A stretch of 64,000 bases of DNA. Origin: Planctomycetota bacterium (GTDB lineage Bacteria; Planctomycetota; B15-G4). Under the pieces are notes generated by a model, which did not search any database, had not been told where the DNA came from, and saw only the letters and a list, made by a program, of their open reading frames with translations. Below, one piece after another: positions 7,325 through 28,180 of the stretch. A program made the position numbers and the translations under genes. Numbering within the stretch: position 1 is the first letter of the stretch; the number at the start of each line of letters is the position of its first letter. The stretch is from contig JAJDEO010000041.1 of NCBI GenBank assembly GCA_029259745.1, positions 19,374 to 83,373 on the forward strand, read 5' to 3'.

Positions 7325-7350
7325 CACATTCCGCAGGTGAGACCGAGAAC

Positions 7351-9796: not shown

Positions 9797-10881
9797 CGCG
9801 CCCGGCTCCACTCCGTGAGCACGTCGAGCATCGCTCGCGCCGAGCCCTCCGCGGAACGTTGCGCCACGAGTGCGCGCCCCGCGTCGCGCGCCGTCGTGCG
9901 CCACGACTCATCGTCGAGAACACGGACGATCGCATCGGCGAGCGAGAGCGCCGACGCGGCGTCGAACATCAACACGGCCTCGCCGCATGCCTCGGCGACA
10001 AAGGCCTGACGACTGACGATCACCGGAGCACCCGCCGCCAGCGCCTCGAGCGCGACGAGCCCGAAGCCCTCGAGCCACGACGGCACGACGACAACCGCAG
10101 CGCGAGCGTACTCGGCGGCCAATGCATCGTCGCCGAGCGGCCCGGCGAAACGCATACGCGGCGCAGCGCCGTGGGCGTTGAGCTGCGCGGACGCCGAACC
10201 CGGCGCACCGACGAGTGTCGCGCGCACGCCGCGCTCTTCGAGCCGCGGGTCACAGAGCGCGTCGAGCACGACGCCGAAGTTCTTCTTTGCGCGCAGCGTC
10301 CCGACGCAGAGGACACCCTCACGCGGAACCGTCGACTCGTCGACCTGCGGCGGAACGACACCGAGCGGCACGACGCGCAGTCGCTCAACGGTCCCTGCAT
10401 GCAACGCAGAAACGTCGTCGGCCGTGCGCTGCGAAGGACACACGATGCGCCAAGCGTTGCGAGCCGTGTGCGCGAGCCGGGCGCGCGCTGTGACTCCGCG
10501 CTCGCCGACGGCCGGGATCCCTCGCGATGACGCGCCCCACGGCACGTCATACACCGTGGCGATCGCGTCGATACCGCCGCGGACGGGTAGCGCCGTCACC
10601 GGCGACCACCAGACATCACACCCGGCTGCTCGTGCCGCTGCGACGCCATGCGTCTCGCGCCACGCCCACGGACGCACGTCGCCCTCGACGGCGCCGACCG
10701 CCTGCGAGGGATCGAGCCCGATGGCCTCGGCACACGCCACCGACGGTGCGACGGCAATCAGCTCGACATCGTCGCCTGCGAGTTCGCGCACGGCCGTGAC
10801 GAGCGCGCGCTGCGCTCGCTCGACGCCGGTCGGGAACGCAGCGCCCGCGCGCTGGATCGACGCGTCAACGGCGATTCGCAT
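9793..10881 (-). CDS. Glycosyltransferase family 4
   Basis: It starts MRIAVDASI and carries the GT4 motif PSWLEGFGLVALEALAAGAPVIVS. Its 5' end overlaps the upstream lipoprotein gene by 17 nt. Confidence 0.8.
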   Translation of the reverse strand: MRIAVDASIQRAGAAFPTGVERAQRALVTAVRELAGDDVELIAVAPSVACAEAIGLDPSQAVGAVEGDVRPWAWRETHGVAAARAAGCDVWWSPVTALPVRGGIDAIATVYDVPWGASSRGIPAVGERGVTARARLAHTARNAWRIVCPSQRTADDVSALHAGTVERLRVVPLGVVPPQVDESTVPREGVLCVGTLRAKKNFGVVLDALCDPRLEERGVRATLVGAPGSASAQLNAHGAAPRMRFAGPLGDDALAAEYARAAVVVVPSWLEGFGLVALEALAAGAPVIVSRQAFVAEACGEAVLMFDAASALSLADAIVRVLDDESWRTTARDAGRALVAQRSAEGSARAMLDVLTEWSRAR

Positions 10882-13552: not shown

Positions 13553-13661
13553 CGTCGGGATTCTAAGGATGTCGTGTCGGAGTTGGCGAGGAACGCGAGC
13601 GCAGAGAGCTGTCGAATGCGCGTCATCACGTCAGGATGACAATGACGACGGCGCTTTGCGT

Positions 13662-14825
13662 CTACGTGTTGGGTGTGGGACGCGCGTGCGCGCCTGGGCA
13701 ATGCTCGACCAACGCGCGGTCGATGTCGACGAGCGCGGAGGCGGCGCGATCCCAGGTGAGGTGGGCGACGGCCTGGCGCGCCGCGGCACCGAGTTCGTCG
13801 CGCGTGGCGGCGCTCGTGATGAGATCCTCGAGCGCAGCGGCGAGGGCGCGTGGGTCGTGCGGGTCGACGGTAATCACGGCGTCGCCGGCGAGATCGGACA
13901 TTGGCGTGTTCGTGGACGTGACGACGGCGCGCCCGCAGCGCAGGGCCTCGAAAACGGGGAGCCCGAAGCCCTCGGCGAACGACGGGTACGCGACGACATC
14001 GGCCGTGCGGAGGAGCGCCGCGAGGGTTGGCTCGTCGACCTCGCCCGTCGTGGCGACCCGTGCATCGGACCTCGTCGCCGCGGCTGCGAGGCGCTCTTCG
14101 AGTTGCGGCACGCCCCACCCGCGCGGGCCCACGAGCAGCAGCGCCGCGCGACCGTCAGGGCGCGCTTCGGTGGCGTCGAGGATCGCTTCGTGGTTCTTGC
14201 GTGGCTCGCGCGTGCCGAGTGCGACGACGAGCACCTCGGGGCGTCGCAGCCGAGCGCGCTGCAACGCCGCCTCGACGAGCGCCCCGTCGTCGGGTTGCGG
14301 CGTCGCGTCGATGTGATCGACGCCGTGAGCGACGACATGCACGTCTCGCGCGCGCGCCATCCCGTGTCGCACGACATCGGCGGCAACGCGTTCACTCGGC
14401 ACGACGAGCGCGGCAGCCCGAGCCGCTGCGGCGCGCACGCGCTGCTCGACGTCGCGCCGGAAGCCGGGCGGATGCCAGTCGTTGTCGTCGAGGAAGACGA
14501 GGTCGTGGATCGTCACGACCTGTTGTGCCGCACGCACAGGCGCATAGACGAGGTCGAGATGGTGGAAGACATCGACGCCGCCGAGCGCATCGTCGGCCGC
14601 CAAGCCCAGCACGCGCTGCACGCGCGCGGGAATGCGTCCGCGCACGACGCCGGCGCCGAGCGGCGCGAGGTCGGCGCGCGGCCGACGCCACGCCCGCGCG
14701 AACCCGTGCGCCTCGACATCCTCACGCCGACGCAACGCACGGAACGTCTCGCGCGCCACGCGTGCGATCCCGGTGGCATGCCAGAGCGCCGGACGGACGT
14801 CCACACCCACACGCAGCCGCGTCAC
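13662..14825 (-). CDS. Glycosyltransferase family 4
   Basis: The GTG start is preceded by GGAGG and overlaps the flippase stop (GTGA junction). The body (RLRVGVDVRPALWHATGIARVARETF…) carries the EX7E region YPSFAEGFGLPVFEALRCGRAVV. The 177-aa Arg/Gly-rich N-terminal extension in the ORF track was rejected. Confidence 0.75.
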   Translation of the reverse strand: MTRLRVGVDVRPALWHATGIARVARETFRALRRREDVEAHGFARAWRRPRADLAPLGAGVVRGRIPARVQRVLGLAADDALGGVDVFHHLDLVYAPVRAAQQVVTIHDLVFLDDNDWHPPGFRRDVEQRVRAAAARAAALVVPSERVAADVVRHGMARARDVHVVAHGVDHIDATPQPDDGALVEAALQRARLRRPEVLVVALGTREPRKNHEAILDATEARPDGRAALLLVGPRGWGVPQLEERLAAAATRSDARVATTGEVDEPTLAALLRTADVVAYPSFAEGFGLPVFEALRCGRAVVTSTNTPMSDLAGDAVITVDPHDPRALAAALEDLITSAATRDELGAAARQAVAHLTWDRAASALVDIDRALVEHCPGAHARPTPNT

Positions 14826-16279
14826 GCCTGGGCCTCCACGGGGCCGCCGGCCTCGACACCGAGGTTCAACGGCCACGTCCCCGACAGCGCCACACCGACA
14901 ACGCCGGCGACGAAACCGAACGCCACGCGCACGCCGACATGCAGCGCCTCGTCCTGCCACCAGGCCGTCGCGCTCAGCGCCGCGAGGCCGGCACTCACCG
15001 CCCCCGCACACGCGAGCGGACGCAGATACGCACTTCGCCCGGCCACAAGCCCCGTGCGCTGGCGCGCCACGACCGTCGACGCCACCACGATGAACGCCTC
15101 GGTCGCCACCGTCGCCCAAGCCGCGCCGAGAATGCCGTAGCGCGGAACCGTCACGAGGTTGAGGACGATGTTCACGACGACGCCACCCGTCGAGATCCAC
15201 ATCATCGTGCGCTGCCCCTCGGAGGCCAGCACGACGAGCACATGCGGATAGGCGACGAAGACGCACACCGTCGCGAGCGCGAGCACGGCGAGGGCCGGAC
15301 CGCCCGGCGCGTACTCGACCGGGAAGATCAGGGCGATCACGTCCTGCGCCACCCATGGCAGCGTTGCCGCCACGCAGACGCCGAGCGAGAAGAGGAAGCG
15401 CGTCGAGCGTGTCAGCACGAGGCCGAGCTGTTCGGGCGCCGCCGGCCAGAGGCGCGAGAAGATCGGGAAGATGACCTGACTGAAGAGCACCGGCACCATG
15501 AGCACGAAGGTCATGACGCGGTAGGCCGACGCGTAGTAGGCGACGGCCTCGTCACCCACGAGCGGCCGCAGCATGAGCGTGTCGACGTAGAAGTACACCG
15601 TGGCCATCGCCGCAGCGACGCCAGCCGGCCACGACTCGCGCCACAGCCAGGCTCGTCGCTCCACCGAGGCGCCAAAGCTCGGCTCGAGCACGCGGCGCCC
15701 GGCCGTCCATGTCGACACGCCGTAGACGACGCCGGCAAGCCCGAAGGCCACGACGAACCATCCCGGCTCGTGCACGCCGAGGGCGACCAAAGCGAGCGTG
15801 CCGAGGAGCCACGTCGACTGACCGAGACACTGGGCGACGACGATCGGCCGGAAGGCCATATCGACCTGCAGCACGGACGCGATGCCCGCCGGCGCGTGCG
15901 CGAGAAGATGCAACGACGCCACGATCGCGAGCCACGTCGTCGCGTTGCCGGGGCCATCGAAGGCCAGCGCGAGCGTGGCCACGAGCCCGATGCCGACCCA
16001 GGCGATGCGCGCCTTGAGCCCGATCAGCATACCGACGAGCTCGGCCGCCTCCTCGCGCCGCCGCGACGCCTCGCGGACGACGATCTGCCCCGCACCGAAG
16101 TCGAGCACGTTCGTGAGCAGCAGGAAGAGCGTGAAGTAGAACGCCGTGACGCCGTAGGTCGCGGTGTCGAGGTGGCGCGGGAGGATGATCGCCGTGACGG
16201 CGAAGGCTAGCAGCGCCGTGTAGAGCCGGCCGCTCACCTGCACCGACGACTGCCGCGCCACGCGCTTCGAGAGGTTCAT
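14822..16279 (-). CDS. Polysaccharide biosynthesis protein or oligosaccharide flippase (Wzx/MOP superfamily)
   Basis: The 485-aa protein has about 12 predicted TM helices. Its N-terminal region (RLYTALLAFAVTAIILPRHLDTATYGVTAFYFTLFLL) matches the PST-family pattern. Confidence 0.75.
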   Translation of the reverse strand: MNLSKRVARQSSVQVSGRLYTALLAFAVTAIILPRHLDTATYGVTAFYFTLFLLLTNVLDFGAGQIVVREASRRREEAAELVGMLIGLKARIAWVGIGLVATLALAFDGPGNATTWLAIVASLHLLAHAPAGIASVLQVDMAFRPIVVAQCLGQSTWLLGTLALVALGVHEPGWFVVAFGLAGVVYGVSTWTAGRRVLEPSFGASVERRAWLWRESWPAGVAAAMATVYFYVDTLMLRPLVGDEAVAYYASAYRVMTFVLMVPVLFSQVIFPIFSRLWPAAPEQLGLVLTRSTRFLFSLGVCVAATLPWVAQDVIALIFPVEYAPGGPALAVLALATVCVFVAYPHVLVVLASEGQRTMMWISTGGVVVNIVLNLVTVPRYGILGAAWATVATEAFIVVASTVVARQRTGLVAGRSAYLRPLACAGAVSAGLAALSATAWWQDEALHVGVRVAFGFVAGVVGVALSGTWPLNLGVEAGGPVEAQA

Positions 16280-16368
16280 CGCGCGGCGGCCCCCGACATG
16301 CGCACCCGCCGCTCGTTGACGTCATGCCGCGTCCCACGCGATGCTGCCGACATGTTGGAGCTGCTCCG

Positions 16369-16989
16369 ATGACCGCTCGCCCCCTGCTCGGCATCGTCCT
16401 CGGTGCCGGCCGCGGTCGCCGACTCGGCGGCCCCAAGGCCCCGCGCCTGCTCGGTCAGCGCAGCTACCTCGCCCACGCCGTGGCAGCGCTGCGCGACGCC
16501 GGCATCACGTCGATCCGCGTCGTCGTCGCCGACGCGCGGCACGTGATCGACGTCGACGACGTCGAGGTACGCATCCATCCGGCGCCCGAGAAGGGCCAGA
16601 CCTCGTCGCTGCGCATCGCGCTGAGCGGCGGCCTCGGCGACGTCGCCGGCTTCGCTCTCCACACAGCCGACCATCCCCTCGCGCGCGCGAGCGACGTACG
16701 CACGCTGCTCGATGTCTTCGCGCAGCGCGCAGAGCACGAACGCATCGTCGTACCGAGCGTGGCCCATCGCCGCGGTCACCCGGCGCTGTTCGCCGCGGCC
16801 CTGGCCGAGGAGTTCCTGGCGCTGGGTGACGACGAGCCTGCGCACCGCGTGGTGCGTCGCGATCCCGAGCGCGTCAGGCACGTCGTCCTCGAGAACCCGT
16901 GGCTGGTGCGCGACATCGATACTCCCGAAGACCACGCGGCCGCCGAACGGGCTCTCAGCGACGGGGATCAGCCGACCAGCAGGACCTGA
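16369..16989 (+). CDS. MobA-like NTP transferase domain protein (molybdopterin nucleotidyltransferase family)
   Basis: The start MTARPLLGIVLGAGRGRRLGGPKA carries the GxGxR nucleotide-binding loop of the MobA/MocA family. The ATG at 16369 is in frame within ORF 16324..16989. Confidence 0.65.
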   Translation: MTARPLLGIVLGAGRGRRLGGPKAPRLLGQRSYLAHAVAALRDAGITSIRVVVADARHVIDVDDVEVRIHPAPEKGQTSSLRIALSGGLGDVAGFALHTADHPLARASDVRTLLDVFAQRAEHERIVVPSVAHRRGHPALFAAALAEEFLALGDDEPAHRVVRRDPERVRHVVLENPWLVRDIDTPEDHAAAERALSDGDQPTSRT

Positions 16990-17381
16990 ACGCGGTTGCG
17001 GATCTCGTCGCGCACGGCGCGGTAGGCCTTCTTGACCTCGGCCTCGGTGCCGCTCGCGATCGTCGGGTCGTTGAGCGGCCAATGGATCTGCGTAGCCTTC
17101 TTCTTCACCTTCGGCAGCGGATCGGAGTCGGGGCTGAGCGTGACGACGGTGTCGATCTTGCCCACTGGCACGTCGGAGAACGTTCGCGTCGGCTGCTCGG
17201 AAATGTCGATGCCGACCTCGTCCATGACGTCGATCGCGTACTTGTCGAGCTTCTTGGCCTTCGCACCCGCCGAGTAGACGTTGATCGGCCCCGAGGACAT
17301 CGTCTTGGCAAACCCTTCCGCCATCTGGCTGCGTGCGTCGTTGCTGTTGCAGATGAAGAGGAAGTTACGAGGCTTGGCCAT
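16968..17381 (-). CDS. Low-molecular-weight phosphotyrosine phosphatase or ArsC-like protein (thioredoxin-coupled arsenate reductase family). It has only one cysteine.
   Basis: The start MAKPRNFLFICNSNDARSQMAEG carries the CX5R P-loop and the ArsC-like RSQMAE motif. The second and third catalytic cysteines of ArsC are absent. GGAGGAG lies 12 nt upstream. The protein is Lys-rich and its GC is lower than the flanking DNA. Confidence 0.65.
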   Translation of the reverse strand: MAKPRNFLFICNSNDARSQMAEGFAKTMSSGPINVYSAGAKAKKLDKYAIDVMDEVGIDISEQPTRTFSDVPVGKIDTVVTLSPDSDPLPKVKKKATQIHWPLNDPTIASGTEAEVKKAYRAVRDEIRNRVQVLLVG

Positions 17382-17441
17382 CTGGTGAGGCTCCTCCGGT
17401 GTGGTGTCGTTTGCGCGCACGGAACCGGAGGCCGCGGCACA

Positions 17442-17460
17442 ATCGCTCAATGATAGCGAT
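17442..17460. promoter_or_regulatory. Inverted repeat ATCGCT-N7-AGCGAT in the divergent promoter region between the ArsC/LMW-PTP-like gene and the ATP-grasp gene
   Basis: A perfect 6-bp inverted repeat with a 7-bp spacer lies about 60 nt upstream of the minus-strand ATG at 17381. It could be an operator site. Confidence 0.2.
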
Positions 17461-17656
17461 AGTGGCTCCGCGACACCAATCGGAGCGGGCAGCGGGAACC
17501 TCTCATCGCGAGATTTCGCGCCCGAATGGCCCCTTTGAGGGCGCTCGAGTCCAAAGAATCCCTCCGACGCGTGCTGGTGTCAGGTGACCTGGCCATCGCG
17601 TCGTCAGGATGCGACTCTGGCCGATCGCGAGCCGCCGCGCCGAGAGAGCAGCCCCC

Positions 17657-18499
17657 ATGTCACGACCTTCCAACCCTTGGGTTGCTCTCATCTGCCGTCG
17701 ATCTGCTGTCGAGGGCGTGCAGCGGATCGTGTCGGCCGGAATGACCGCGGGACTCACCGTCGTCCCCGTCCACCCCGACGCGGCCTACGGACAGCCTGCG
17801 CCGGCCGTCGTCCTCCCGCGGCTTCCGTCGGGCGGAAGCCTGGGCCAACTCGGAGCCTGGGCCGCCTCGGGCGTGCCGTACGTGAATGGACCGGCAGCGA
17901 TCGCGGCCGTGCACGACAAGCCCGCGGCTCTCAGGCGCCTCGCGGCGGCAGGCATTCCGGTGCCACCGACCGTCGTCGTCACGCGCGACGCAGCCGCGAG
18001 CCTCGACGAACTCCCGGGTGACCGCTTCATCGTCAAGCCGGTCCGCGGCGCCGCTGGACGCGGTGTGAGCGTCGGATGGACGCGCGCCGAGGCTCGCGAC
18101 CGCGCCGCCGCCTTCGCTGACATCTCGGGCCCCGCGCTCGTCCAGCCGCAGCTCGGCAGCGGGATCGATCGCCGCATGTTCGTCGTCGACGGGCGCATCG
18201 TCGCGACCATGGAACGCGTGCCCGCGCCCGGCGACGGACGCGCGAGCCTGCTGTACGGAGGAACGGCACGTCGCTTCGCACCCTCACAGGAAGAGCACGC
18301 GCTCGGGCTTTCCTGCGCGAGCGCGCTCTCCCTCGACATCGCCGGCGTCGACCTGCTCGTCACCGATGACGGACCGCTCGTCCTCGAAGTGAACGTATGC
18401 CCCGGCCTGAAGGGGATCGAGGCCGCCACCGGCGTGGACGTCGCGGCAGCGATTCTCGAAGCCTGCCGCTCGCGTCTCACCCACGAGACAGCGAGTTGA
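17657..18499 (+). CDS. ATP-grasp domain protein (RimK / alpha-L-glutamate ligase-like)
   Basis: It starts MSRPSNPW. The ATP-grasp core includes FIVKPVRGAAGRGVSV…LVQPQLGSGIDRRMFVVDGRIVATMER…GVDLLVTDDGPLVLEVNVCPGLKGIE. Confidence 0.7.
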   Translation: MSRPSNPWVALICRRSAVEGVQRIVSAGMTAGLTVVPVHPDAAYGQPAPAVVLPRLPSGGSLGQLGAWAASGVPYVNGPAAIAAVHDKPAALRRLAAAGIPVPPTVVVTRDAAASLDELPGDRFIVKPVRGAAGRGVSVGWTRAEARDRAAAFADISGPALVQPQLGSGIDRRMFVVDGRIVATMERVPAPGDGRASLLYGGTARRFAPSQEEHALGLSCASALSLDIAGVDLLVTDDGPLVLEVNVCPGLKGIEAATGVDVAAAILEACRSRLTHETAS

Positions 18500-18602
18500 A
18501 GGAATCGGCGTTCCGGGTCATGCTGGCCCCGCGTTCGAGGGGGGTGGGACGCACTCGTATCGGCCGCCGCACGGGGGGCCAGCGAGCGAGCGAAAGGGAC
18601 TC

Positions 18603-19364
18603 ATGACCATCACCGCGATCGTCAGCGACATCCATGGCAACCTGCCGGCGCTGGCCGCGGTGCTCGACGACGCACGCGAACGCGGTGCGAGTCGGCTCTG
18701 GTGCCTCGGCGACATCGTCGGCTACGGCGCCCATCCGCAGCAGTGCGTCGAGCTGCTGCGCGAACACTGCGCGCACATCATCAAGGGCAACCACGAGCAG
18801 GCCGCGATCGATGGCCCGTTCGGGTTCAACCCGCTCGCGGCGGCGGCGATCCGCTGGACGCAAGGCCAGTTCCTCGACGAGGCCGGACAGCCCGACGAGA
18901 CGATGCAGTTCCTCATCGAGCTCCCCGAGCGCATCGACGACGACAACGCCGTGCTCGTACACGGTTCGCCGACGCATCCTCTCGACGAGTACCTCTTCGA
19001 GCAGGACACACTCGACAACGCACGCGACCATGCGCCGAAGCTCGTCCGCTGCTTCCAGCGCATCGACCGCCCGTGCTTCGTGGGACACACGCACGTGCCC
19101 GGCGTGATCGACGCGAACTTCACCTGGACGTCGCCCGCCCAGTGCCCCGACGGTTACGACACCGAACGCCGCCCGTGCATCGTCAACGTCGGGTCGGTCG
19201 GCCAACCGCGCGACGGCGACACCCGCGCGTCGTACGTCCTCTTCGATGGTGAGGTCGTCACGTTCCGCCGCGTCGAATACGACGTCGAACGCGCCGCGAA
19301 CTCGATCTTCGCCAACGACGAGCTGCCCGACCTTCTCGGCCAACGCCTCATCGAAGGCTGGTGA
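18603..19364 (+). CDS. Metallophosphoesterase (calcineurin-like, YfcE/Icc-type)
   Basis: It carries the metallophosphoesterase motifs SDIHGN, GDIVGYG, GNHE and GHTHVPG. Confidence 0.8.
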   Translation: MTITAIVSDIHGNLPALAAVLDDARERGASRLWCLGDIVGYGAHPQQCVELLREHCAHIIKGNHEQAAIDGPFGFNPLAAAAIRWTQGQFLDEAGQPDETMQFLIELPERIDDDNAVLVHGSPTHPLDEYLFEQDTLDNARDHAPKLVRCFQRIDRPCFVGHTHVPGVIDANFTWTSPAQCPDGYDTERRPCIVNVGSVGQPRDGDTRASYVLFDGEVVTFRRVEYDVERAANSIFANDELPDLLGQRLIEGW

Positions 19365-19403
19365 CAGCGCGCACGAGCAACGAGCTCCTCGGAGGGCGTC
19401 AGC

Positions 19404-19781
19404 ATGTCGAAGGCACCAACGGTCGTGCGCACGTTCGATAGCGCCGTCTTCGCACATCTCGCGCGTGGGCGGCTCGAGTCCGAAGGCATCGAGAGCTTCA
19501 TCGTCGACGAACACCAGGTGACGAACAATCCGCTGACTGCCATCGCTGTTGGCGGGATCAAGCTCGTCGTCGCCGAGGATGACCTTCACGCGGCGCGCGA
19601 GCTTCTGGACCAACGCATCGAAGTCAGCGACACGTGCGCCGCCTGTGGGTCGACGAACATCGAACGCAACGCACGAGGCCGCCGTCTCGCTTTCTTGACG
19701 CTGATGTTCGCCCACATTCCCATCGGCCGCGCGAAGACCAAGCTCCGATGCGACGACTGCGACCACGCCTGGCGCGAGTGA
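19404..19781 (+). CDS. Hypothetical protein with a DUF2007-like N-terminal domain and a C-terminal zinc ribbon
   Basis: The 125-aa protein has an N-terminal domain resembling the putative signal-transducing DUF2007 fold. The C-terminus carries CAACGS…CDDCDHAW, a CxxC…CxxC arrangement. Confidence 0.5.
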   Translation: MSKAPTVVRTFDSAVFAHLARGRLESEGIESFIVDEHQVTNNPLTAIAVGGIKLVVAEDDLHAARELLDQRIEVSDTCAACGSTNIERNARGRRLAFLTLMFAHIPIGRAKTKLRCDDCDHAWRE

Positions 19782-19811
19782 TCGCGCACGACGGTCCGTC
19801 GATCAAACGCG

Positions 19812-21353
19812 TCAGTCGAGCGAGAGTTCGAAGCCGTTGGTCGACGTGACTCCCGTCGCTGCCGAACCGTCGGCGAGGAACGCCTGGCTGTACACGGTGA
19901 TGCCCGCAGCCGTGGGCGGAACGACGATGTCGCCCGACAGCACCCCCGTCTGCGACAGCGTGAACGGAATCGAGATAAGCCCCGTCGGTGACAGGTAGAA
20001 CGGACAGCCCTTCACGGCGAGCCCGTCGGCCGTCGCGAGATTGACGAAGAGCAGGCCGAGCGCGCCCGACGGGCCGCCCATCACCGTGTAGTCGAGCTCG
20101 CTGCCGACGTCGGGGTGTCCGACGACGTCGTGCCACGGAGCCTCGGACGAGCCAGACCCGCACGGCTCTCCGAAAGGCACACCGCGCATGTCGAAGACAA
20201 AGCCGCGTACGTTCGTCGTCGTCGATCCGATCACGACGTCGTCGCCGTCGAGGTCGATCGCCGTCATGCTCGAGACGCCCGACGCGAAACGTTGCTCCAG
20301 GCGAACTCCCTGAGTCCACGTCCCGCCTTCACGGTTGAACACGACGGTGAACGGGACGCCCGTCCCCAGCTCACGAAGTCCGCCGACCACGGCGAACTGA
20401 CCGCTCAGTGCGACGTCGCGACCGAAGTCAGCCGGCTGAGTCGCAGACTCGTCCGTGGTCAACGTCGCGACCTCCGTCCAGACCCCGGCGATCCGCTCGA
20501 AGACGAGCACGGCACCCGGCGAGCTGCTCGGCGAGCCCTTGGCACCGACGAGGATCGTCGAGTCGTGGACATCGACCGCCGAAGAGACAGCGAGGTTCGC
20601 GCCGGCCAGCAGCGGCGAGGTGAGTTCGGCCGTCTCGGCCCAACTTCCCGCGACGCGCTCGAAGACGTGCACTCGTCCTGGTCCCGCAATCGGGCCGCCC
20701 GACGCGGCCACCACCGCGACGTCCCCACGGATCGACACGCCAGCGCCCGCGAACCCGAAGTCCGTCCCGCTGCTCGGGATCAACTTCGCGACGTGATTCC
20801 ACGCGCTGCCGTCGTACTCGTAGAGATGGGCGGCACCGGCGTCGACACCGTTCGCGTTGTCGTCGTTGGGCTCGCCGACGAGCAGTCGATTGCCACTCAG
20901 GGCGATGCTGCGGCCGAAGTTTCCGAGCGGCTCGGGATCGCTCGCGTCGACGTTGCCGATCTGGGCCCAGACGCCCGCCACGCGCTCGTAGACGTAAGCG
21001 GTTCCGGCGCCCATGTTCGGCGCCCCCACGGCAACGCGCCCGACACTCGCAGCGACGTACCCGAAACCGTCGGACGGAAAGGCACTCACTCCGTTCAACG
21101 TGTCGACTCGGATCCAATCCCCCGCGATTCGTTCGAACACTTCGACCAAGGACACACTCGGTCCACCGACGAACGCCGTATCACCGGAGATGGCGACGGA
21201 CGTTCCAAGCGAGACCGCGCTGCCAGCCCCGGTGAGCAGGATCTCGTCCTGAAACTTCGTCGGTGTCACCTGTGCGAAGGCCGTCGAGGAGAGAGTCATC
21301 GCGACGAGACCCGCCGTGACGTGTCGCCGGCAAGAGCAAGAGAGAGAAACCAT
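19812..21353 (-). CDS. Secreted FG-GAP-like beta-propeller protein with a conserved C-terminal domain shared with two proteases
   Basis: The ORF-track ORF was trimmed to MVSLSCSCRRHVTAGLVAMTLSSTAFAQ (signal peptide). Repeats read VGAPxxGxGxAYVYER, FGxSIALSGNRLLVGEP and similar. The last ~100 aa (GGPSGALGLLFVNLA…GITVYSQAFLADGSAATGVTSTNGFELSLD) align with the C-termini of the proteases at 29771..32755 and 54625..56445. Confidence 0.7.
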   Translation of the reverse strand: MVSLSCSCRRHVTAGLVAMTLSSTAFAQVTPTKFQDEILLTGAGSAVSLGTSVAISGDTAFVGGPSVSLVEVFERIAGDWIRVDTLNGVSAFPSDGFGYVAASVGRVAVGAPNMGAGTAYVYERVAGVWAQIGNVDASDPEPLGNFGRSIALSGNRLLVGEPNDDNANGVDAGAAHLYEYDGSAWNHVAKLIPSSGTDFGFAGAGVSIRGDVAVVAASGGPIAGPGRVHVFERVAGSWAETAELTSPLLAGANLAVSSAVDVHDSTILVGAKGSPSSSPGAVLVFERIAGVWTEVATLTTDESATQPADFGRDVALSGQFAVVGGLRELGTGVPFTVVFNREGGTWTQGVRLEQRFASGVSSMTAIDLDGDDVVIGSTTTNVRGFVFDMRGVPFGEPCGSGSSEAPWHDVVGHPDVGSELDYTVMGGPSGALGLLFVNLATADGLAVKGCPFYLSPTGLISIPFTLSQTGVLSGDIVVPPTAAGITVYSQAFLADGSAATGVTSTNGFELSLD

Positions 21354-21440
21354 GTTGCGCTCCGTGGGGTGGGCCCACACGGAGTCTACAGGGCGTGCGC
21401 TCCGTCGAGTTGCGATCGGCGGATAGTGCCGGCATCGCGA

Positions 21441-21787
21441 CACGCGCGTGACCATGCGACGAAGCTCCTCCGCTGCTTCCAGCGCATCCACCGACCGGGC
21501 TTCGTCGGACACACGCACGTGCCCAGCGTGATCGACGAAAACTGCACGTGGACGTCGTCCGCCCAGTGCCCGGACCGGTACGGAACGGAACGCCGCCCTT
21601 GCGTCGTCAGCGTCGGTTCGGTCGGCCGACCGCGCGACAGCGACACGCCTACGTGGTACGTCCTCTTCGACGGCGAAGTCGTGACGGTTCGCTGCGTCGA
21701 ATGAAACGTCGAGCGCGCGGCCAACTCGATCTTCGCCAATGAAGAGTTCCCCGACCCCGCGGCCAACGCCTCATCGAAGGCTGGTGA
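21441..21787 (+). pseudogene. Degenerate duplicate of the 3' end of the metallophosphoesterase gene (copy of 19021..19364). It carries a frameshift and an in-frame TGA.
   Basis: It shows about 85% nucleotide identity to 19021..19364 over roughly 345 bp, with small indels. Its translation HATKLLRCFQRIHRPGFVGHTHVPSVIDENCTWTSSAQCPDRYGTERRPCVVSVGSVGRPRD… ends with a premature stop (…RCVE*). Confidence 0.75.
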
Positions 21788-21800
21788 CCGCAGGCGGACG

Positions 21801-22250
21801 TCAGACTTCGACGAACGCGGGACGAATCTCCCGAGCATAGAACGCGATGAGCGCCGGGGGCGCTGCGTCGATCTTCGCGAGCCGGCAGGCCATGTCCAAG
21901 GGCTCGCTGTGATAGGCGAGATCGGGTATCCGCGACTCGAAGGCAGTCAGGCGCGCATCGTCGATCGTGCAACGAACTTCGACCAGGCAACGCCGCACGG
22001 CGCGCCAGTACTTGGCTTTGTATGCGGAGGTCAGCTGCGTGCTGGTCATGGTCGAAGTTCAGCGGGGTGTAGCAGAGCTTGCGCGAGGTCTTCTGGGCAA
22101 CATCACGTTCGTCGGCAAACTCCCGCCCGATCTGAACATCCATACTTCCGGTGGCCCCGTCATCGCCGTCGCCGAGGTCCTGTGGCGGTTCGGACAGCGG
22201 TCGATCGGGAAACAGACCGAGGTCCGTCGTCTGGTCCGTCATCCTGAGCT
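21801..22250 (-). pseudogene. Possible small protein gene of about 146 aa split by a -1/+1 frameshift near 22050
   Basis: The N-terminal part MTDQTTDLGLFPDRPLSEPPQDLGDGDDGATGSMDVQIGREFADERDVAQKTSRKLCYTPLNFDH is non-Arg-rich and protein-like. It continues in another frame as TSTQLTSAYKAKYWRAVRRCLVEVRCTIDDARLTAFESRIPDLAYHSEPLDMACRLAKIDAAPPALIAFYAREIRPAFVEV (ORF 21801..22049). GC3 is only moderate. Confidence 0.25.
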
Positions 22251-22288
22251 CAGCGAGCTGCGGAGATATCCGCCATCGGCTGTGCGAA

Positions 22289-23806
22289 TCAGAGCGACTC
22301 GTGGACTTCGAGCGCGAGAACGCCGTCCGGAGTGGCATCGGCGCTGTCACCCTGCACGACGAGCATCGCGGCGTGGCGGCGTGCGCGTTCGATCGGGTCG
22401 GCGATGTCGGTGCGCGTGAGCGTGAGGACACCGGCCGTGTGCGCGCGGGCAAGGGCGATCGTGGCCGCGTCGTTCGTGTCGACATCCGGGCCGATGAGGA
22501 TGCGCCAGCCCGAGAGGAAGCCCGACTCGCGATCGATGAGCGCGTCGAGCGTCTCGAGATCGAGGACACCTGCCGTGAGGACCGCGCCGCCGGTGAGCAC
22601 GGGCAGGAGGTCGAGCGTCACGGCGTGTGGATCGATCTCACCGGCGTCGCAGCCGATGACATCGCCCTCGGTGTCGATCTCGACGATGCGGGCGACGACA
22701 TCGCCGATGCGCAGTCGCGGTTGGGCCGGCCAGCGCCCGGCGAGGAAGTGCGCGGCCGTCGGCGCGTCGAGCAGCTTGGCCGGTGGCGGCGGCTTGACCT
22801 TCGTGACGGGCTCGAGGTCGTCGAGCGCGCGAACGGTCTTGAACGACGCCTTGAGGAACGGCGGCCAGGGACGGCCCGAGTCGTGGCGGCGGCGCAACCA
22901 GTTCAGCGTCTCGCGATGCCCCGCGTTGCCGGTACCGATCGGCCCGTCGTCGACGGACGCGGCCACGCCACGCATCTCGCGCGCACGGTGACTGCGCGCG
23001 AGCACGGCCCCGGCGCGCGCCGCGATGTAGTTGTCGTCGGCCTTGTGCTCGAGCCGCACCTCGGCGCCGCGCCCACGCCAGGTTTCGATGGCACGCCGCA
23101 GCGTGGCCTGCCCGCCGTAGTCATCGATGACGATCTCGATGTCCGACCAATCGTCGGCATCCGTGAGCCCCGCCGACGCCATGAGGTCGCCGACGGCGCG
23201 CACGTAGACGAGGTCGAGCAGCGCGTTCTTGCTGTAGCGATCGAAGACCGGATTCGGCACGGGCAGCGCGACGAGATGCACGCCCTCGGCGCGGACCTCT
23301 TCGAGCTGACGGCCGAGACGTTCCCAGCCTGACGCGGTGCGTGAGGCCTTCGTGTCGACGCGCGCCGCGATCTTCGAGACGGCGTCGATCGCGTCCACCG
23401 GGATCATCGATCCGCCGATCACCGTGGTGCCGATCAACTCACCCGTGCCGGTTTCGTCGAGGCCGATGAGCCAGCGCGTCGTCTCGCGTTTTGCACCGAT
23501 CAACCCGCCGATTCGCGTCGGGGACGTCGGCGGCGTCTTGACCCGCACGCCGGGCACGCCCTCTTCACCCAGCGCCTCGGCGATCTGCGCCGCCAGGACA
23601 GTTCCCTCGGCATCGCCGTCCTTCACCGTGGCCACGAGCTTGTGCGACGTGTACATCGTGAAGATCGACTTCTCCGGCGTGCGCACCTCGAAGGCCACGT
23701 ACTGATTCTTCGGATTCTTCGCCAGCGCGTGTCCGCGGGCCGTGAACAGCGCGCCGATGGCGGAGGCTTGCTGCGGCGAGAGACTTCGAGAGACAGGTCG
23801 GCTCAT
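22289..23806 (-). CDS. rnhC: RNase HIII-like protein with an RNase HIII N-terminal domain, an RNase HII/HIII catalytic domain and an uncharacterised C-terminal extension of about 200 aa
   Basis: The ORF-track ORF was trimmed to MSRPVSRSL. The N-terminal domain NQYVAFEVRTPEKSIFTMYTSHKLVATVKDGDAEG matches the RNase HIII DUF3378 pattern. The catalytic motifs are LIGLDETGTGELIG (the GIDEAGRG equivalent) and HKADDNYIAARAGAVLAR. The C-terminal 200 aa has no counterpart in canonical RNase HIII. Confidence 0.6.
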   Translation of the reverse strand: MSRPVSRSLSPQQASAIGALFTARGHALAKNPKNQYVAFEVRTPEKSIFTMYTSHKLVATVKDGDAEGTVLAAQIAEALGEEGVPGVRVKTPPTSPTRIGGLIGAKRETTRWLIGLDETGTGELIGTTVIGGSMIPVDAIDAVSKIAARVDTKASRTASGWERLGRQLEEVRAEGVHLVALPVPNPVFDRYSKNALLDLVYVRAVGDLMASAGLTDADDWSDIEIVIDDYGGQATLRRAIETWRGRGAEVRLEHKADDNYIAARAGAVLARSHRAREMRGVAASVDDGPIGTGNAGHRETLNWLRRRHDSGRPWPPFLKASFKTVRALDDLEPVTKVKPPPPAKLLDAPTAAHFLAGRWPAQPRLRIGDVVARIVEIDTEGDVIGCDAGEIDPHAVTLDLLPVLTGGAVLTAGVLDLETLDALIDRESGFLSGWRILIGPDVDTNDAATIALARAHTAGVLTLTRTDIADPIERARRHAAMLVVQGDSADATPDGVLALEVHESL

Positions 23807-23872: not shown

Positions 23873-26296
23873 ATGATCCGCCTGCGGACCGGCAACCTCA
23901 GCACATCCACGCTCAAGGCCGTCTGGCACGAGCGCAGCCGGCCCGATCCGAACGTCGACCGCGCGCGACTCGTCGAGTGGGCGCGCGCGGGGTTCGACGA
24001 AGTCGAGGACTACGTGGCGTGGGGCGTCGTCGAGCAGCGGCCGGGGCGCTGGGACTTCACGCTGCACCACGAGAACCTCGATGCGATCGAGGCGGCCGGG
24101 ATGGAGCCGTGGATCTATCCGTGGCTGCACGTGAGTCCGCACTGGTGGACGCGCGGGGAGCTGGCCGACGACGACGCGCTGTTCGTGCCGTCGCGTTGCG
24201 CGGCGACCGGGCGCGCCGGTTACTTCCCGAGCCTGTTTGCGGAGTCGACATGGACGCGATTGGCGCGCTTCTACGCGGCTGTGAACGACGCGCTCGGCTC
24301 ACGTGTCGAAGGCATTGCGATCGCGTGGCCGACCGACTACGGCGAGGTCGGTGCGGCGTCGAACATCTCGCGCTGGCTCTTCCCGCATCGTCCCGCGGGT
24401 CCGGCCCATGGCGATGCCTTCTGGTACGGGGACGAGCCTGCGCGACGCGCGCTCGCAGACTGGATCGAGATCGAACACGGGTCGCTGGGCGCAGCGGCCG
24501 AACGCTGGGGCGTCGACGTGGCAACGCTCACGCCCGCGACCGGCAACACGCCGCCGCCTTTCCCTGTCCCCGCGCTGGCCAGCTCCGAAGCGCTGCGCAT
24601 CGACATCGCGTCGTTCGCAAGGCACGCAACGCACACGGCGCTCGAACGCATGTTCGCCCTGGCGCGCGACGTGTTCGGATCGGCGCCGCTCGAGATCAAG
24701 CTCGGGCATGCCAGCGAGTCGGTGCTGCTCGGGCGATCGATGTCGGACGTCGTCGCGATCGCCGCGCGTCACGATGTCTCGGTACGCTCGACCCACTCGG
24801 GCCAAGCGCCGCTCTTCACGAAGCACATCGCGGCGTCGTGCCGCCGTCACGGAGCACGCTTCACGACCGAAGGCCCGCGCGACGTCGCACGCGATGTGCT
24901 CGCTCGCCGCCTGCACGACGACATCTGCCACGGGTCGACGCACCTCTACGAGTTCCCCGAGCAGCTCGCCATGGTCGACATCGACGCTGTGCGCGACGCC
25001 CTCGGTACCCCCGTGCGCGGCCATACAGTCGCCGCGTTCATGCCGCACCTCGACCTCGCCTTGACGCCGGGGCTCGGTGTGCCCGAGTGTCTCGTCGTCG
25101 GACTCGAGACGCTACGTCGCGTCGTCGACTTCGACTTCATCGACGACGCGACGACGCTCGACGGAAGCACCTCCGCACTTCTGCTCTTCGACGCACGCGC
25201 CTTCGCTTCATCGACGTACAACGCGCTCGCCGCCTGGGTGCATGCCGGCGGCACGTTGATCGCTGGCACGCCGGGCGCACCGCGCGTCTGCCGTGCAGCG
25301 GACGACTCGCCGCTGACGCCGCAGGGCGAGGCGCTGCACGATGCCCTGACGCGCGACGATCCGGCACGTCGCTCGACACCGGACGGCATCGCGTCGATCG
25401 CGCCAGCCGACGTGCGACCGATCCCCGACGGTGTCGTCCGCACCCATGCTCGGCCGGGCGAGGAGCTCGACCGTTTCCTCGTCGGCGAAGGCTGGCACGG
25501 CCGCGACGACGGCGCCTTCGGTTGGCCCGACGAAGAAGGCCCCGTTCCGACCCGCTGGACGACGGGCTGCGCGCGCCTGCGGCTGCCGAAGGTCGTCGGG
25601 CCCTGCGAGTCGCGCGGCCTGCTCGTGCTCGACGCGACGATTCGTGGCCAGGCGCCGCTCACGCCCGTCGTCGTCTGGTGGAACGGCACGGCAATCGGAC
25701 GCATCGACTACCCGCGCGAGGCTCCCGGGCCCGTCGCCTTGCCCGCCGACCCGCCGCGCGCGGGACAGCCCAACCTCGTCACGTTGACGATGCCCACCAC
25801 GCGCCCGCCCGAACGCAACGGCGCACGCGACGAACGCGAGCTCGGCATCCTCGTGCGCGAGGTTCGTTGGGTTGGCCTCGAGACACCGGCCGACGACGTC
25901 GGCGGACTCGCGTCGATCCCGGGCTTCACGGTTCGCGAGCGTGCCACCGAGCGTCCCACCGAAGCCCCCGCCGACACGACACGCGCGTTCGGCAAGGGCA
26001 CGGTGATCGTCGGCGACACCACACCCGCCGGCGCCCTCGACGGTCTGCGCACCTGGCTCGCCGAGCACACGAACACGCCCACGCCCGCGAACACGATCCT
26101 CGTCCGCGACCTCGACGAAACGTGCCTCGTCACGGCACTGCGCGACGGCCTCATCGTCTTCAACCCGTCACGCGTCCCGACGACGCCACGCCTCGTCATC
26201 CATCCCCACCACGTCGCCGACATCCCGCAGGGGACGCTGCCGACGATCGAGACGATCCCCGGTCACACGACGCGGTTCGTGCCCTGGGCGAGCTGA
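23873..26296 (+). CDS. Glycoside hydrolase, GH42-like (beta-galactosidase-type TIM barrel with a trimerisation-like domain). It has no signal peptide.
   Basis: It starts MIRLRTG. The N-terminus DEVEDYVAWGVVEQRPGRWDFTLHHENLDAIEAAGMEPWIY fits the GH42 pattern WxxxEPxxGxxDF…D. A central class-I glutamine-amidotransferase-like region reads LLLFDARAF…WVHAGGTLIAG. Confidence 0.5.
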   Translation: MIRLRTGNLSTSTLKAVWHERSRPDPNVDRARLVEWARAGFDEVEDYVAWGVVEQRPGRWDFTLHHENLDAIEAAGMEPWIYPWLHVSPHWWTRGELADDDALFVPSRCAATGRAGYFPSLFAESTWTRLARFYAAVNDALGSRVEGIAIAWPTDYGEVGAASNISRWLFPHRPAGPAHGDAFWYGDEPARRALADWIEIEHGSLGAAAERWGVDVATLTPATGNTPPPFPVPALASSEALRIDIASFARHATHTALERMFALARDVFGSAPLEIKLGHASESVLLGRSMSDVVAIAARHDVSVRSTHSGQAPLFTKHIAASCRRHGARFTTEGPRDVARDVLARRLHDDICHGSTHLYEFPEQLAMVDIDAVRDALGTPVRGHTVAAFMPHLDLALTPGLGVPECLVVGLETLRRVVDFDFIDDATTLDGSTSALLLFDARAFASSTYNALAAWVHAGGTLIAGTPGAPRVCRAADDSPLTPQGEALHDALTRDDPARRSTPDGIASIAPADVRPIPDGVVRTHARPGEELDRFLVGEGWHGRDDGAFGWPDEEGPVPTRWTTGCARLRLPKVVGPCESRGLLVLDATIRGQAPLTPVVVWWNGTAIGRIDYPREAPGPVALPADPPRAGQPNLVTLTMPTTRPPERNGARDERELGILVREVRWVGLETPADDVGGLASIPGFTVRERATERPTEAPADTTRAFGKGTVIVGDTTPAGALDGLRTWLAEHTNTPTPANTILVRDLDETCLVTALRDGLIVFNPSRVPTTPRLVIHPHHVADIPQGTLPTIETIPGHTTRFVPWAS

Positions 26297-26404
26297 CGCG
26301 CGCGTCGACGAGGTGCCCGTCACCACCGACTCGGCGCTTCCTTGGATGCTCGACGTCGCCCGGAACGCGTCGTCCTCGTGACGCTTCCTGAAGCGACTCC
26401 AACG

Positions 26405-28180
26405 TCACGGGAACGGCACGCCGACGACGACGGGGTCGTGGTCGGAAACTTGATCGGCGAACTCGGCGTTGACGTGGACGACGTCGACGGCCACCGCGCT
26501 CCCATCGCCGAAGAGTGACTTGCTGACGAGCACGTGGTCGAGCACCTGCGCGACGCCTTGGTAGACGTACGTGTAGCGCTCGTTCTCGGGAAGCTGCTCG
26601 ATGAGCGACACCAGACGCGTGCCGGCGAGCGTGCGAACGGGGCGCGAGAACGGAAAGTCGTTGAGGTCGCCCATGACGATGACGGCGGCGTCTTCGTCGA
26701 TCTCGAGCAGCGCGTCGACGACGCGCCCGATCGCCGCGGCCTGCTGCACGCGCTTCGGCTCGCTGTGTCGAACGGGCGGTTGGTTGGTGCCGTAGAGCGA
26801 ATCGTCGCCGCCCTTCGAGCGCAGGTGCGCGACGATCGCGAAAAGCGACTCTCCGCCGCGGCGGAACTGCGCGATGAGCGGCTTGCGGCTGTTGTCGAAG
26901 GACGCATCGTCGGTGCCGAAGCGGCCCGGGCTGAACGACAGCGTCGGGCCGTCGGGGCGCGAGAGCACGGCGACCTCGTCGGTGGGCCCTGAACCGGGGC
27001 GACGCGCGAGCGACAGGCCGGTGTCGGTGCGCCACAGGAAACCGACACGGATGTTGCCGCAGGGTTGACCGCCGTCTTCGCCGTCAACCGGCGCGACGTC
27101 GGCCCACGAGTAGCGCGGCCCGCCGGCAGCGACGATCGCGTCGATGAGCAGCGCCCAGGTCGCGGCGGCCGACGTCGTGCCTGCGCCGCACTCGGGGCCG
27201 TCGTCGTCCTGGATTTCCTGGACACCGATGAGATCGGGCGAACGCAGGTTGTCGACAACGAGTGCCGCGAGGCGGGCGAAGTGCTCGGGGTCATCGCGCG
27301 CGTCGAGGTTCTCGACGTTGAACGTCGCGACGCGCACGAGCGCCTCATCGTCGGGCACCTCGCTGACTTCGCGCAGCAGTCCTTGGCGCTCGACGGTGGG
27401 CGCGTTCGTCACGAGCACCTTGTAGTTGCCGAAGCTGTAATGCACGACGCCGATCACGTCGCTCGTGAAGCGGTCGCCGAGGTGCATCTCCGGCACCTCG
27501 GCGAGCAGATCGTCGAGAGTGACGCGCCCAGGATGGGCGCTGCTCTCCGTCATCACCAGTGCACCGCGCGCGCTCAACGGCGCGGTGCCGCCGCAGACAA
27601 CCGTGACTTCGCCGTACTTGTTGCGGGCGCTCGTCGCGCGCGCGTCTGCGATCTGCACGCGCATGCCCTCGCAGCTCTCGAGGAAGTCGAGCGAGTCGGT
27701 GCCGATGTCGAACGAGGTCAACCCGTCGTCGTCGATCGCGGCCGTCGGAACGGTGCGACCACCCTCACCGCCCCAACGCACGGGCGCCGGCAAGGCCACC
27801 TCGCGTTCGAGCGTCTCGACGGACGCCGCAACGAGCGTCGTGATCGGGAGCGTCCCATCGCCGAACAGTTGCTCCTCAACGACGCCGCGCGCGCGCACGA
27901 TGTCGCCGACGGCGAGATCGCGATGGACGTCCGATGTCGTCATGACGACGAGCCCCTCGGACGTCTCGTCACGCGCATCGCGGGCTGCCACGGGGGCCTC
28001 GATCCAGACGCTGTATGCGTTGCGACGCGAATCGCCGTGCGACGCCGTGACGATGCCCTCCACGGCGACTTCCTGGCCGACGAGCGGCGAGCGATGCGTC
28101 GCGCCCTGGACGCGATGGATCGGCAGCACGTCAGCTGCCGGGGCCGCGAACAGCACACTGAGAAGTAGGCCGGCAAGCAT
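26405..28180 (-). CDS. Secreted endonuclease/exonuclease/phosphatase (EEP) family extracellular nuclease-like protein
   Basis: The ORF-track ORF was trimmed to MLAGLLLSVLFAAPAADV (signal peptide), with GGAG upstream. An N-terminal OB-like region is followed by an EEP domain (VATFNVENL…IGVQEIQDD…FAIVAHLRSKGGDD…VMGDLNDF…SDHDPVVV). Confidence 0.65.
   Translation of the reverse strand: MLAGLLLSVLFAAPAADVLPIHRVQGATHRSPLVGQEVAVEGIVTASHGDSRRNAYSVWIEAPVAARDARDETSEGLVVMTTSDVHRDLAVGDIVRARGVVEEQLFGDGTLPITTLVAASVETLEREVALPAPVRWGGEGGRTVPTAAIDDDGLTSFDIGTDSLDFLESCEGMRVQIADARATSARNKYGEVTVVCGGTAPLSARGALVMTESSAHPGRVTLDDLLAEVPEMHLGDRFTSDVIGVVHYSFGNYKVLVTNAPTVERQGLLREVSEVPDDEALVRVATFNVENLDARDDPEHFARLAALVVDNLRSPDLIGVQEIQDDDGPECGAGTTSAAATWALLIDAIVAAGGPRYSWADVAPVDGEDGGQPCGNIRVGFLWRTDTGLSLARRPGSGPTDEVAVLSRPDGPTLSFSPGRFGTDDASFDNSRKPLIAQFRRGGESLFAIVAHLRSKGGDDSLYGTNQPPVRHSEPKRVQQAAAIGRVVDALLEIDEDAAVIVMGDLNDFPFSRPVRTLAGTRLVSLIEQLPENERYTYVYQGVAQVLDHVLVSKSLFGDGSAVAVDVVHVNAEFADQVSDHDPVVVGVPFP

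Follow-up and report, generated by a model that had tools for sequence, protein, structure and literature searches.

How did the 3' end of a metallophosphoesterase (MPE) gene come to stand twice on one strand of a planctomycete chromosome, once inside an intact gene and once more as a fragment behind two unrelated genes? An earlier note on this DNA had proposed that an element integrated into the 3' end of MPE, supplied a replacement 3' end of its own, and left the displaced original to decay. We reanalyzed the locus within the window, i.e. the whole stretch of 64,000 nucleotides that was available to us, and in related genomes. The reading of the locus as an insertion scar is supported, and a mobile-element mechanism is plausible. 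It is very probable that the locus is a fossil insertion behind MPE, in which the ~350-bp 3' end of the gene was duplicated and two cargo-type genes were gained. The full statement, which includes a Campbell-type mechanism, stands in our judgment at an even balance. The features on which the argument rests are given in the table, where the two copies of the MPE 3' end are called A and B.

Table. Features of the MPE locus (positions in the window)
Feature	Position	Strand	Remarks
MPE gene, intact, 253 aa	18603..19364	+	Pfam Metallophos_2 4e-16, Metallophos 9e-14
Repeat copy A: last 115 codons and stop of the intact MPE gene	19013..19368	+	frame intact
Inserted gene 1: DUF2007 domain with C-terminal CxxC...CxxC zinc ribbon	19404..19781	+	Pfam DUF2007 2e-09
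Inserted gene 2: FG-GAP repeat protein, secreted, 514 aa	19812..21356	-	Pfam FG-GAP_2 8e-25
Right-hand junction, 81 bp, from FG-GAP start to copy B	21357..21437		no MPE similarity
Repeat copy B: orphaned C-terminal MPE fragment, pseudogene	21438..21791	+	TGA; 1-nt deletion near end
82-aa ORF, no credible homologue	21801..22049	-	in the 501-bp spacer from copy B to the RNase HII-like gene
RNase HII-like gene, convergent with MPE	22289..23806	-	Pfam RNase_HII 3e-10; conserved right neighbour in relatives

The repeat itself had been described as a same-strand copy of the MPE 3' end with about 85% identity, small indels and a premature TGA, and self-BLASTN of the window bore this out, with 85.1% identity between A and B over 356 columns (E 2e-110). 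In a repeat search, the match fell into two blocks, 19018-19317 versus 21442-21741 (85%) and 19337-19368 versus 21760-21791 (97%), spaced by 2424 and 2423 nt, respectively. No other long repeat connects separate loci in the window; all other self-BLASTN matches were intragenic repeats at 6.2-8.4 kb. Chance as a source is far exceeded, and the repeat is real. A small indel marks its left boundary, and on the right the homology stops 4-7 nt or less from the stop codon. The longest exact run (29 nt) is found at the extreme 3' end and, by our estimate, is within chance for repeats of this identity and length; no recognizable att core could be singled out in the two copies. Copy B has neither a start codon nor the 5' half of the gene (codons 1-138), and a search of the DNA upstream of it found no remnant of the MPE 5' part. 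The TGA (21702-21704) is in-frame and occupies the position of a TAC codon in copy A (Tyr226, 19278-19280), and a 1-nt deletion opposite position 19334 shifts the last ~10 codons. Owing to this nonsense codon and the deletion, copy B is a dead fragment, which we take to be non-coding today.

An insertion should have left an empty site in relatives, as the earlier note predicted, and such a site was found. In four relatives (L001/L002, L003, L086 and L088), the next gene after MPE is the convergent RNase HII-like gene, across a spacer of 6-274 bp that contains neither DUF2007 nor FG-GAP. The MPE proteins of these relatives are 83% (L001/L002) or 66-68% (L003, L086 and L088) identical to that of the present locus. 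Both flanks consist of syntenic housekeeping genes, and synteny with L001 holds without a break on either side, resuming on the right at position 22358. Since the DUF2007 and FG-GAP genes are absent between MPE and the RNase HII-like gene in all four relatives, they represent an insertion specific to this lineage.

MPE has 7850 homologues, mostly in Planctomycetota metagenome-assembled genomes (MAGs), for which the JGI label is ApaH / Ser-Thr phosphatase family. That a DUF2007/zinc-ribbon ORF and an opposite-strand FG-GAP gene lie between the two copies, as first read from the sequence, is upheld by the Pfam matches listed in the table. The DUF2007 gene starts 39 bp past the MPE stop codon on the same strand and is probably co-transcribed with MPE, which itself is, we infer, unaffected by the insert at present. 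For the FG-GAP gene, reading of the sequence favours the ATG at 21356, with GGAG ahead of it and a signal-peptide-like N-terminus after it. The database carries a longer gene call of 547 aa (P0121; 10409-12052 in L089) that starts inside copy B; this call is probably over-extended and its annotated start probably wrong. The 81-bp junction presumably represents the 5' untranslated region (UTR)/promoter region of FG-GAP. A match to the sigma-70 consensus was not found in the junction; FG-GAP would be transcribed from a promoter somewhere in the junction/copy-B region.

How old the event is, and where the two copies came from, can be judged from their divergence. Copies A and B are 85% identical to each other, while A is 81% and B 72% identical to L001; moreover, A and B share the stop codon TGA, where L001 and L003 have TAG. 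By sequence comparison, therefore, A and B group as sisters to the exclusion of the nearest orthologue, and their being closer to each other than to that orthologue implies an old event, with both copies derived from this lineage. Forty-five of the 50 differences between them could be polarized, of which 38 are derived on the B branch and 7 on the A branch. Changes on the B branch are spread over the three codon positions (14:8:16), and those on the A branch are mostly at third positions. With ~11% substitutions accumulated, a nonsense codon, a frameshift and 38 derived changes, copy B fits the earlier expectation that the downstream copy decays. Synonymous changes on the B branch numbered 18 against 10.9 expected under a spectrum-matched neutral model in which unresolved sites were assigned to B (P=0.007), or 16 against about 10, by our scaling, when only the 38 polarized changes were counted. 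This excess hinges on the polarization of saturated sites, and a hand calculation of the unpolarized version gave a marginal value of ~0.07. The excess suggests that copy B, once split from A, remained for some time part of a functional allele, and for that reason an incoming diverged copy fits better than an instant duplication in place.

The further idea, that the 3' end of the intact gene was imported from another host, was not borne out. Copies A and B are sisters, and the N- and C-terminal parts of MPE have the same nearest relative, equally distant from both (84.1% and 82.6%, respectively). A break in ancestry at codon 139 was looked for at the protein level and was not seen. The nucleotide pS value versus L001 (0.42 for the 3' part versus 0.26) was also considered as a sign of such a break and was discarded, since the 3' part is the faster one in other pairs as well.

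Traces of a mobile element were also looked for. ORFs in 19365-22288 contained no integrase, excisionase or transposase when compared with Pfam, NCBIfam, PHROGs and PADLOC. Their only Pfam matches were DUF2007 and FG-GAP_2, PADLOC reported nothing, and the weak sub-threshold matches were one in NCBIfam (DUF2007-related) and one in PHROGs (unknown function). Neither within the 2.9-kb non-syntenic block nor next to it was a recombinase or other mobility gene found, no Rfam family or tRNA was detected among RNA genes, and no phage DNA matched the insert. Likewise, 80 other MPE loci yielded neither a partial duplicate of the MPE 3' end nor a related element. GC content, GC3 and GC skew of the insert were without anomaly (the inserted genes had z values of -0.3 to -1.8 for GC/GC3 versus the genes of the window), and this normal composition neither supports nor opposes a foreign origin. 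On identity as a mobile element, the earlier proposal thus found no backing in recombinase, tRNA, phage match, related element or GC/GC3 anomaly. The nearest non-self homologues of the FG-GAP protein are 28-37% identical; those of the DUF2007 protein (two) are 49% identical, and their genes lie next to DUF4272 and an unrelated ORF upstream instead of MPE. As the inserted genes are without close relatives, no donor or sister element is known. DUF2007/zinc-ribbon genes also occur at 32-35% identity on a few plasmids, an uninformative observation.

The closest precedent is the isocitrate dehydrogenase locus of Escherichia coli. The geometry of target gene, insert and orphaned fragment has been described for icd/icdC around e14, where the differences between icd and icdC are mostly synonymous, with two amino-acid changes only (PMC13626634). 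In E. coli K-12, checked directly, icd and icdC share 166 nt with about 93% identity, and the homology ends at TAA+1. As with e14 (and phage 21) at icd, the order at the present locus is an intact target with its 3' end inside the insert, then the insert, and then a same-strand orphaned C-terminal fragment; as with icd/icdC, the A/B homology ends at the stop codon. Whereas e14 measures 15.2 kb and encodes intE and xisE as well as phage genes, the present insert is 2.07 kb long and lacks a recombinase, and the 80 other MPE loci gave no sign of a related element or of repeated use of the site. Unlike icd/icdC, moreover, the repeat is twice as long (about 350 nt), has only 85% identity, and carries a nonsense codon and a frameshift. 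Of the hallmarks of a 3'-end-replacing element, the locus thus shows an empty site and a direct repeat of the 3' end with an intact upstream and an orphaned downstream copy, but neither a recombinase inside nor related elements or repeated site use. In a descriptive sense only, flanking repeats without integration or transfer genes also fit a CIME (a decayed ICE or IME that keeps attL and attR), but the repeats here are diverged and have no recognizable functional att core. No ICE or IME using this site was seen in the loci examined, and descent from one would be pure conjecture.

In Campbell-type integration, a single crossover of a circular DNA via a cloned or captured chromosomal fragment duplicates exactly the shared fragment around the insert, and the target gene stays intact only if that fragment extends to the end of the gene. 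As a laboratory or plasmid phenomenon, it differs from the present case, which has no plasmid backbone, and by itself it would leave the stop of the homology at the stop codon unexplained. The sequence of events can be reconstructed as follows. Very probably, MPE and the RNase HII-like gene were convergent neighbours in the ancestor. In this lineage, about 2.07 kb carrying the DUF2007/zinc-ribbon and FG-GAP genes now lies immediately past the MPE stop codon, and the event that brought it very probably also duplicated the final ~350 bp of MPE beyond the insert. Copy A, upstream, completes a working gene, and copy B, downstream, has since decayed. The most likely agent, at even odds, is a circular DNA that carried its own MPE 3' end and recombined with the chromosome inside that region in the Campbell manner, either through a site-specific recombinase (as e14 or phage 21 at icd) or through RecA acting on the 350-bp homology. 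One step would then yield the intact gene, the insert and the displaced 3' end, and a circle carrying its own MPE 3' end would account for the end of the homology at the stop codon. Mobility genes, if there were any, would have been lost later.

A one-step illegitimate duplication-insertion, with no mobile element, a captured 2.07-kb filler and a copy B that was dead from the start, is an unlikely alternative. It could have proceeded by unequal joining of sister chromosomes broken at 19368 and ~19015, or by template switching during replication, and it agrees with the absence of mobility genes, the normal composition of the insert, the sister relationship of A and B within this lineage, and perhaps a microhomology of a few bases at the left boundary (TCG..GAC). 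However, the first break must have fallen within a few nucleotides of the stop codon by chance, with nothing to constrain it, and the synonymous excess on the B branch is unexpected for a copy on which selection never acted. In addition, foreign filler DNA of 2 kb is unusual at the junction of a tandem duplication.

It is somewhat more doubtful that copy B is the remnant of a full-length functional tandem paralogue of MPE, whose 5' half and spacer were replaced by the DUF2007/FG-GAP DNA. Full-length tandem MPE pairs with spacers of 21-35 bp do occur in distant Planctomycetota (L006, L008 and probably L009), and a period of function would be compatible with the synonymous excess on the B branch. 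These tandem loci, however, are just 40-43% identical to the present MPE and thus not close relatives, whereas the closer relatives (four of four) carry a single MPE, and a paralogous pair with both copies intact was not found among them. Nor is there an MPE 5' trace upstream of copy B, and a broken paralogue would require at least two events, with the left end of the insert coming to lie just past the stop codon of A by coincidence.

Far less probable is the notion that the 2.4-kb unit (MPE 3' end, DUF2007 and FG-GAP) is a minimal, recombinase-free cassette which passes between related planctomycetes and uses the 3' end of a conserved host gene as its landing pad, being inserted by homologous recombination of the host or mobilized in cis by an undiscovered element with the same target site, with copy B kept as the promoter/5' UTR of FG-GAP. 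An assembly or binning artefact, in which the MPE 3' end of a variant strain was wrongly placed behind the FG-GAP gene, is scarcely credible even for a metagenome-assembled genome, as two different assemblers gave an identical 13.8 kb (the Logan assembly of run SRR15505515, which probably shares its reads with the MAG, agrees at 100% identity over window 9404-23242, both copies included), copy B has unique sequence on both flanks, and its nonsense codon, frameshift and changes at all codon positions do not befit a live allele of a co-occurring strain.

A fossil insertion behind MPE, with its 3' end duplicated, is accordingly the reading that we retain, and as such the locus is a scar of the ordinary genomic kind. 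It is a clear and dated case in which a conserved pair of convergent genes, in an uncultured lineage of the Planctomycetota, gained two accessory genes while the flanking genes were undamaged, and it demonstrates that a gene fragment of 350 bp can survive about 11% divergence. A new biological question would arise only if sister elements were found. For annotation, 21438-21791 should be marked as a pseudogene.

The DNA to the right of copy B is less readily assigned. Neither the 501-bp spacer after copy B nor the 39 bp after copy A has usable similarity to the spacer of L001, and therefore neither flank is demonstrably ancestral. A hairpin on the minus strand (21771-21814, z -2.1) covers the end of copy B together with the DNA just downstream and is absent at copy A; it was rejected as a conserved terminator, since in the relatives a hairpin does not occur consistently at the MPE stop codon. 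The 82-aa ORF is the small, possibly frameshifted ORF of the earlier note. A search of 1.8 billion representative proteins gave no credible homologue by which the frameshift could have been confirmed (a lone weak match, P0245, is a repetitive protein and was set aside as spurious), and the ORF has no viral relative and no match in Pfam, NCBIfam, PHROGs or PADLOC. A single-sequence structure model of its product is all-helical, with a pLDDT of 66.6 that is too weak for a fold search. This ORF may or may not be part of the insertion event. It does exist past copy B as noted earlier, with a coding-like GC content by codon position (0.61/0.49/0.78), and immediately upstream of it a further stretch (22051-22242) also looks coding, though in a different frame.

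We conclude that a 2.07-kb segment of two genes entered between two conserved convergent genes, that for a metallophosphoesterase (MPE) and an RNase HII-like gene, and that the same event duplicated the last ~350 bp of MPE; the upstream copy (A) ends the intact gene, and the downstream copy (B) is a decaying relic. The direct repeat described in the earlier note, with about 85% identity and small indels, lies where that note put it. A repeat search of the window paired 19018-19317 with 21442-21741 (85%) and 19337-19368 with 21760-21791 (97%) on the same strand, at a distance of 2424/2423 nt; the copies are collinear in a MAFFT alignment, with small indels only, and whole-window self-BLASTN matched 19013-19368 to 21438-21791 (85.1% over 356 columns, E 2e-110). 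The remaining self-matches in the 64 kb are within-gene repeats at 6.2-8.4 kb. These are diverged internal repeats (6208-8423, 66-81% identity) inside and between adjacent ORFs 5948-7324 and 7351-8664 (+), which probably encode repeat-domain proteins.

Features of the MPE region and tandem MPE pairs elsewhere in the phylum
Feature	Location	Strand	Remark
MPE	18603-19364	+	intact, 253 aa
DUF2007 ORF	19404-19781	+	between copies; C-terminal CxxC...CxxC zinc ribbon
FG-GAP_2 repeat protein gene	likely start 21356	-	between copies
Copy B	21438-21791	+	
82-aa ORF	21801-22049	-	no credible homologue
Second stretch, other frame, upstream of 82-aa ORF	22051-22242	-	coding-like
RNase HII-like gene	22289-23806	-	
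Tandem MPE pair	L006 8001-9544		distant Planctomycetota; spacer in range 21-35 bp
Tandem MPE pair	L008 7236-8765		as L006
Tandem MPE pair	L009 8001-8907 (probable)		as L006

The empty site that the earlier note looked for in relatives, with MPE followed directly by the RNase H-like gene, is present in four related loci (L001, L003, L086 and L088), which favours insertion. In the nearest available relative, L001/L002 (MPE protein 83% identical, flanking DNA ~76-78%), the gene order is that of the window, running from polysaccharide synthase through NTP transferase, LMW phosphatase and RimK-like ligase to MPE, and the convergent RNase HII-like gene follows at once. The latter also abuts MPE in the more distant L003, L086 and L088 (MPE 66-68% identical). 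The two stop codons are 274 bp apart in L001, 26 bp in L003, 51 bp in L086 and 6 bp in L088, versus 2,924 bp in the window. L003, L086 and L088 fall outside the pair formed by the window and L001, so the site was empty in the ancestor and the insert was gained in the window's lineage. The convergent partner of MPE is, in all five genomes, a ~500-aa protein whose RNase HII domain match is only weak, and the pairing may be functional. In the same neighbourhood, a PAS/GAF/GGDEF gene of L001 (14971-16419) lies between blocks that are ~200 bp apart in the window (26202-26410), a further difference in gene content. The spacer from copy B to the RNase HII-like gene (21788-22288) is 501 bp, versus 6-274 bp in relatives; the 82-aa ORF and the coding-like stretch in it, both on the minus strand, might together form a single gene with a frameshift, or might have been gained separately as a small insert.

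Copy A comprises the final 115 MPE codons and the stop. Copy B carries the premature TGA that had been noted earlier (21702-21704, where A has TAC for Tyr226) and a 1-nt deletion opposite 19334 that puts its last ~10 codons out of frame. The copies are 85.5% identical; against the L001 orthologue, A is 80.7% and B 72.0% identical. Both end in TGA, while L001 and L003 have TAG. When the 50 differences were polarised against L001, 38 fell on the B branch (codon positions 14:8:16), 7 on the A branch, mostly at third positions, and 5 were ambiguous. B has therefore long evolved largely without constraint, to ~11% divergence, in keeping with the decay proposed for the displaced copy. On the A branch pS is 0.06 and pN 0.019, and copy A is, judging from its substitutions, kept under purifying selection. 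Residues 1-138 and 139-253 of MPE have the same nearest relative, P0002 (84.1% and 82.6%), and both resemble it in relation to 60 other homologues; at the protein level there is no sign of a distant host as the source of copy A. In a neutral test, in which the mutation spectrum of B was placed at random on the inferred ancestor, 18 synonymous changes were observed on B versus 10.9 +/- 2.6 expected (P=0.007, unresolved sites counted as B). With the 38 polarised changes only, 16 were synonymous versus ~10 expected by scaling, and an unpolarised hand calculation gave only ~0.07; synonymous sites are near-saturated, which makes polarisation error-prone. As a hint rather than a result, the excess speaks for an initial period in which B was not yet dead.

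The A/B homology starts at ~19013-19018 / 21438-21442, in a variable, indel-prone MPE loop with at most a few bases in common beyond it, and a search upstream of copy B found nothing left of the 5' half of MPE. On the right the homology stops within 4-7 nt of the stop codon, with TGAC and then unrelated sequence. The E. coli icd/icdC pair, with 166 nt in common at ~93% identity, likewise stops at the stop codon, and the window geometry agrees with it in every structural respect. The reading that an insertion left a scar is supported by the empty sites in four relatives; a mobile element with a replacement 3' end is plausible and matches the known precedent of e14 at icd, but is not demonstrated here. 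That a circular DNA with its own copy of the MPE 3' region recombined there with the chromosome has, in our judgement, an even chance of being correct, and would explain most features in a single step. The recombination could have been site-specific, as for e14, or homologous, and subsequent loss of mobility genes would give a CIME-like end state (for the definition, see PMC5704250). Such an event would account for the intact upstream gene, the orphan downstream fragment and the end of homology at the stop codon, and possibly for the hint that B was once constrained. As the earlier note had remarked for integrases, no ORF of the non-syntenic block 19365-22288 (DUF2007, FG-GAP, copy B and the 82-aa ORF) matched a recombinase, nor a transposase, phage or defence family. 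The block had no phage DNA match, the region no Rfam match and the window no tRNA gene; of 80 further MPE loci, all in species-representative genomes, none carried a partial 3' duplicate of the gene.

Illegitimate duplication and insertion in one step, with captured DNA as filler, would require no mobility genes; the boundary at the stop codon would then be a coincidence, and we consider this origin unlikely. Somewhat less probable still is that copy B is a broken tandem MPE paralogue. Full-length tandem pairs occur in three distant planctomycete loci among the 80 surveyed, so that MPE-family tandem duplication is recurrent in the phylum; nonetheless, a broken paralogue demands additional steps, and two MPE copies are seen in none of the close relatives. 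The window seems to come from a metagenome-assembled Planctomycetota genome. An assembly artefact is very improbable, the independent Logan assembly of SRR15505515, probably from the same reads, being 100% identical over 9404-23242, so that the arrangement is not one assembler's quirk. The repeat and insert are a genome scar of an ordinary kind, from an uncultured lineage.

Between the copies, the zinc-ribbon ORF and the opposite-strand FG-GAP gene lie as previously described. Among 5.8 billion proteins neither has a close relative, the closest non-self matches being 28-37% identical for FG-GAP and 49% for DUF2007, and the DUF2007 homologue is adjoined by unrelated genes. GC and GC3 of both fall inside the range of the window's genes. 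The ATG at 21356 is the likely FG-GAP start, with GGAG ahead of it and a signal-peptide-like sequence behind. The database call for this protein, P0121 (547 aa; L089 10409-12052), starts within copy B on the opposite strand (window 21357-21518), and the ATG at 21356 more likely fits as the start. If so, the FG-GAP promoter or 5' UTR would overlap the junction as well as the copy B pseudogene fragment at its left end.
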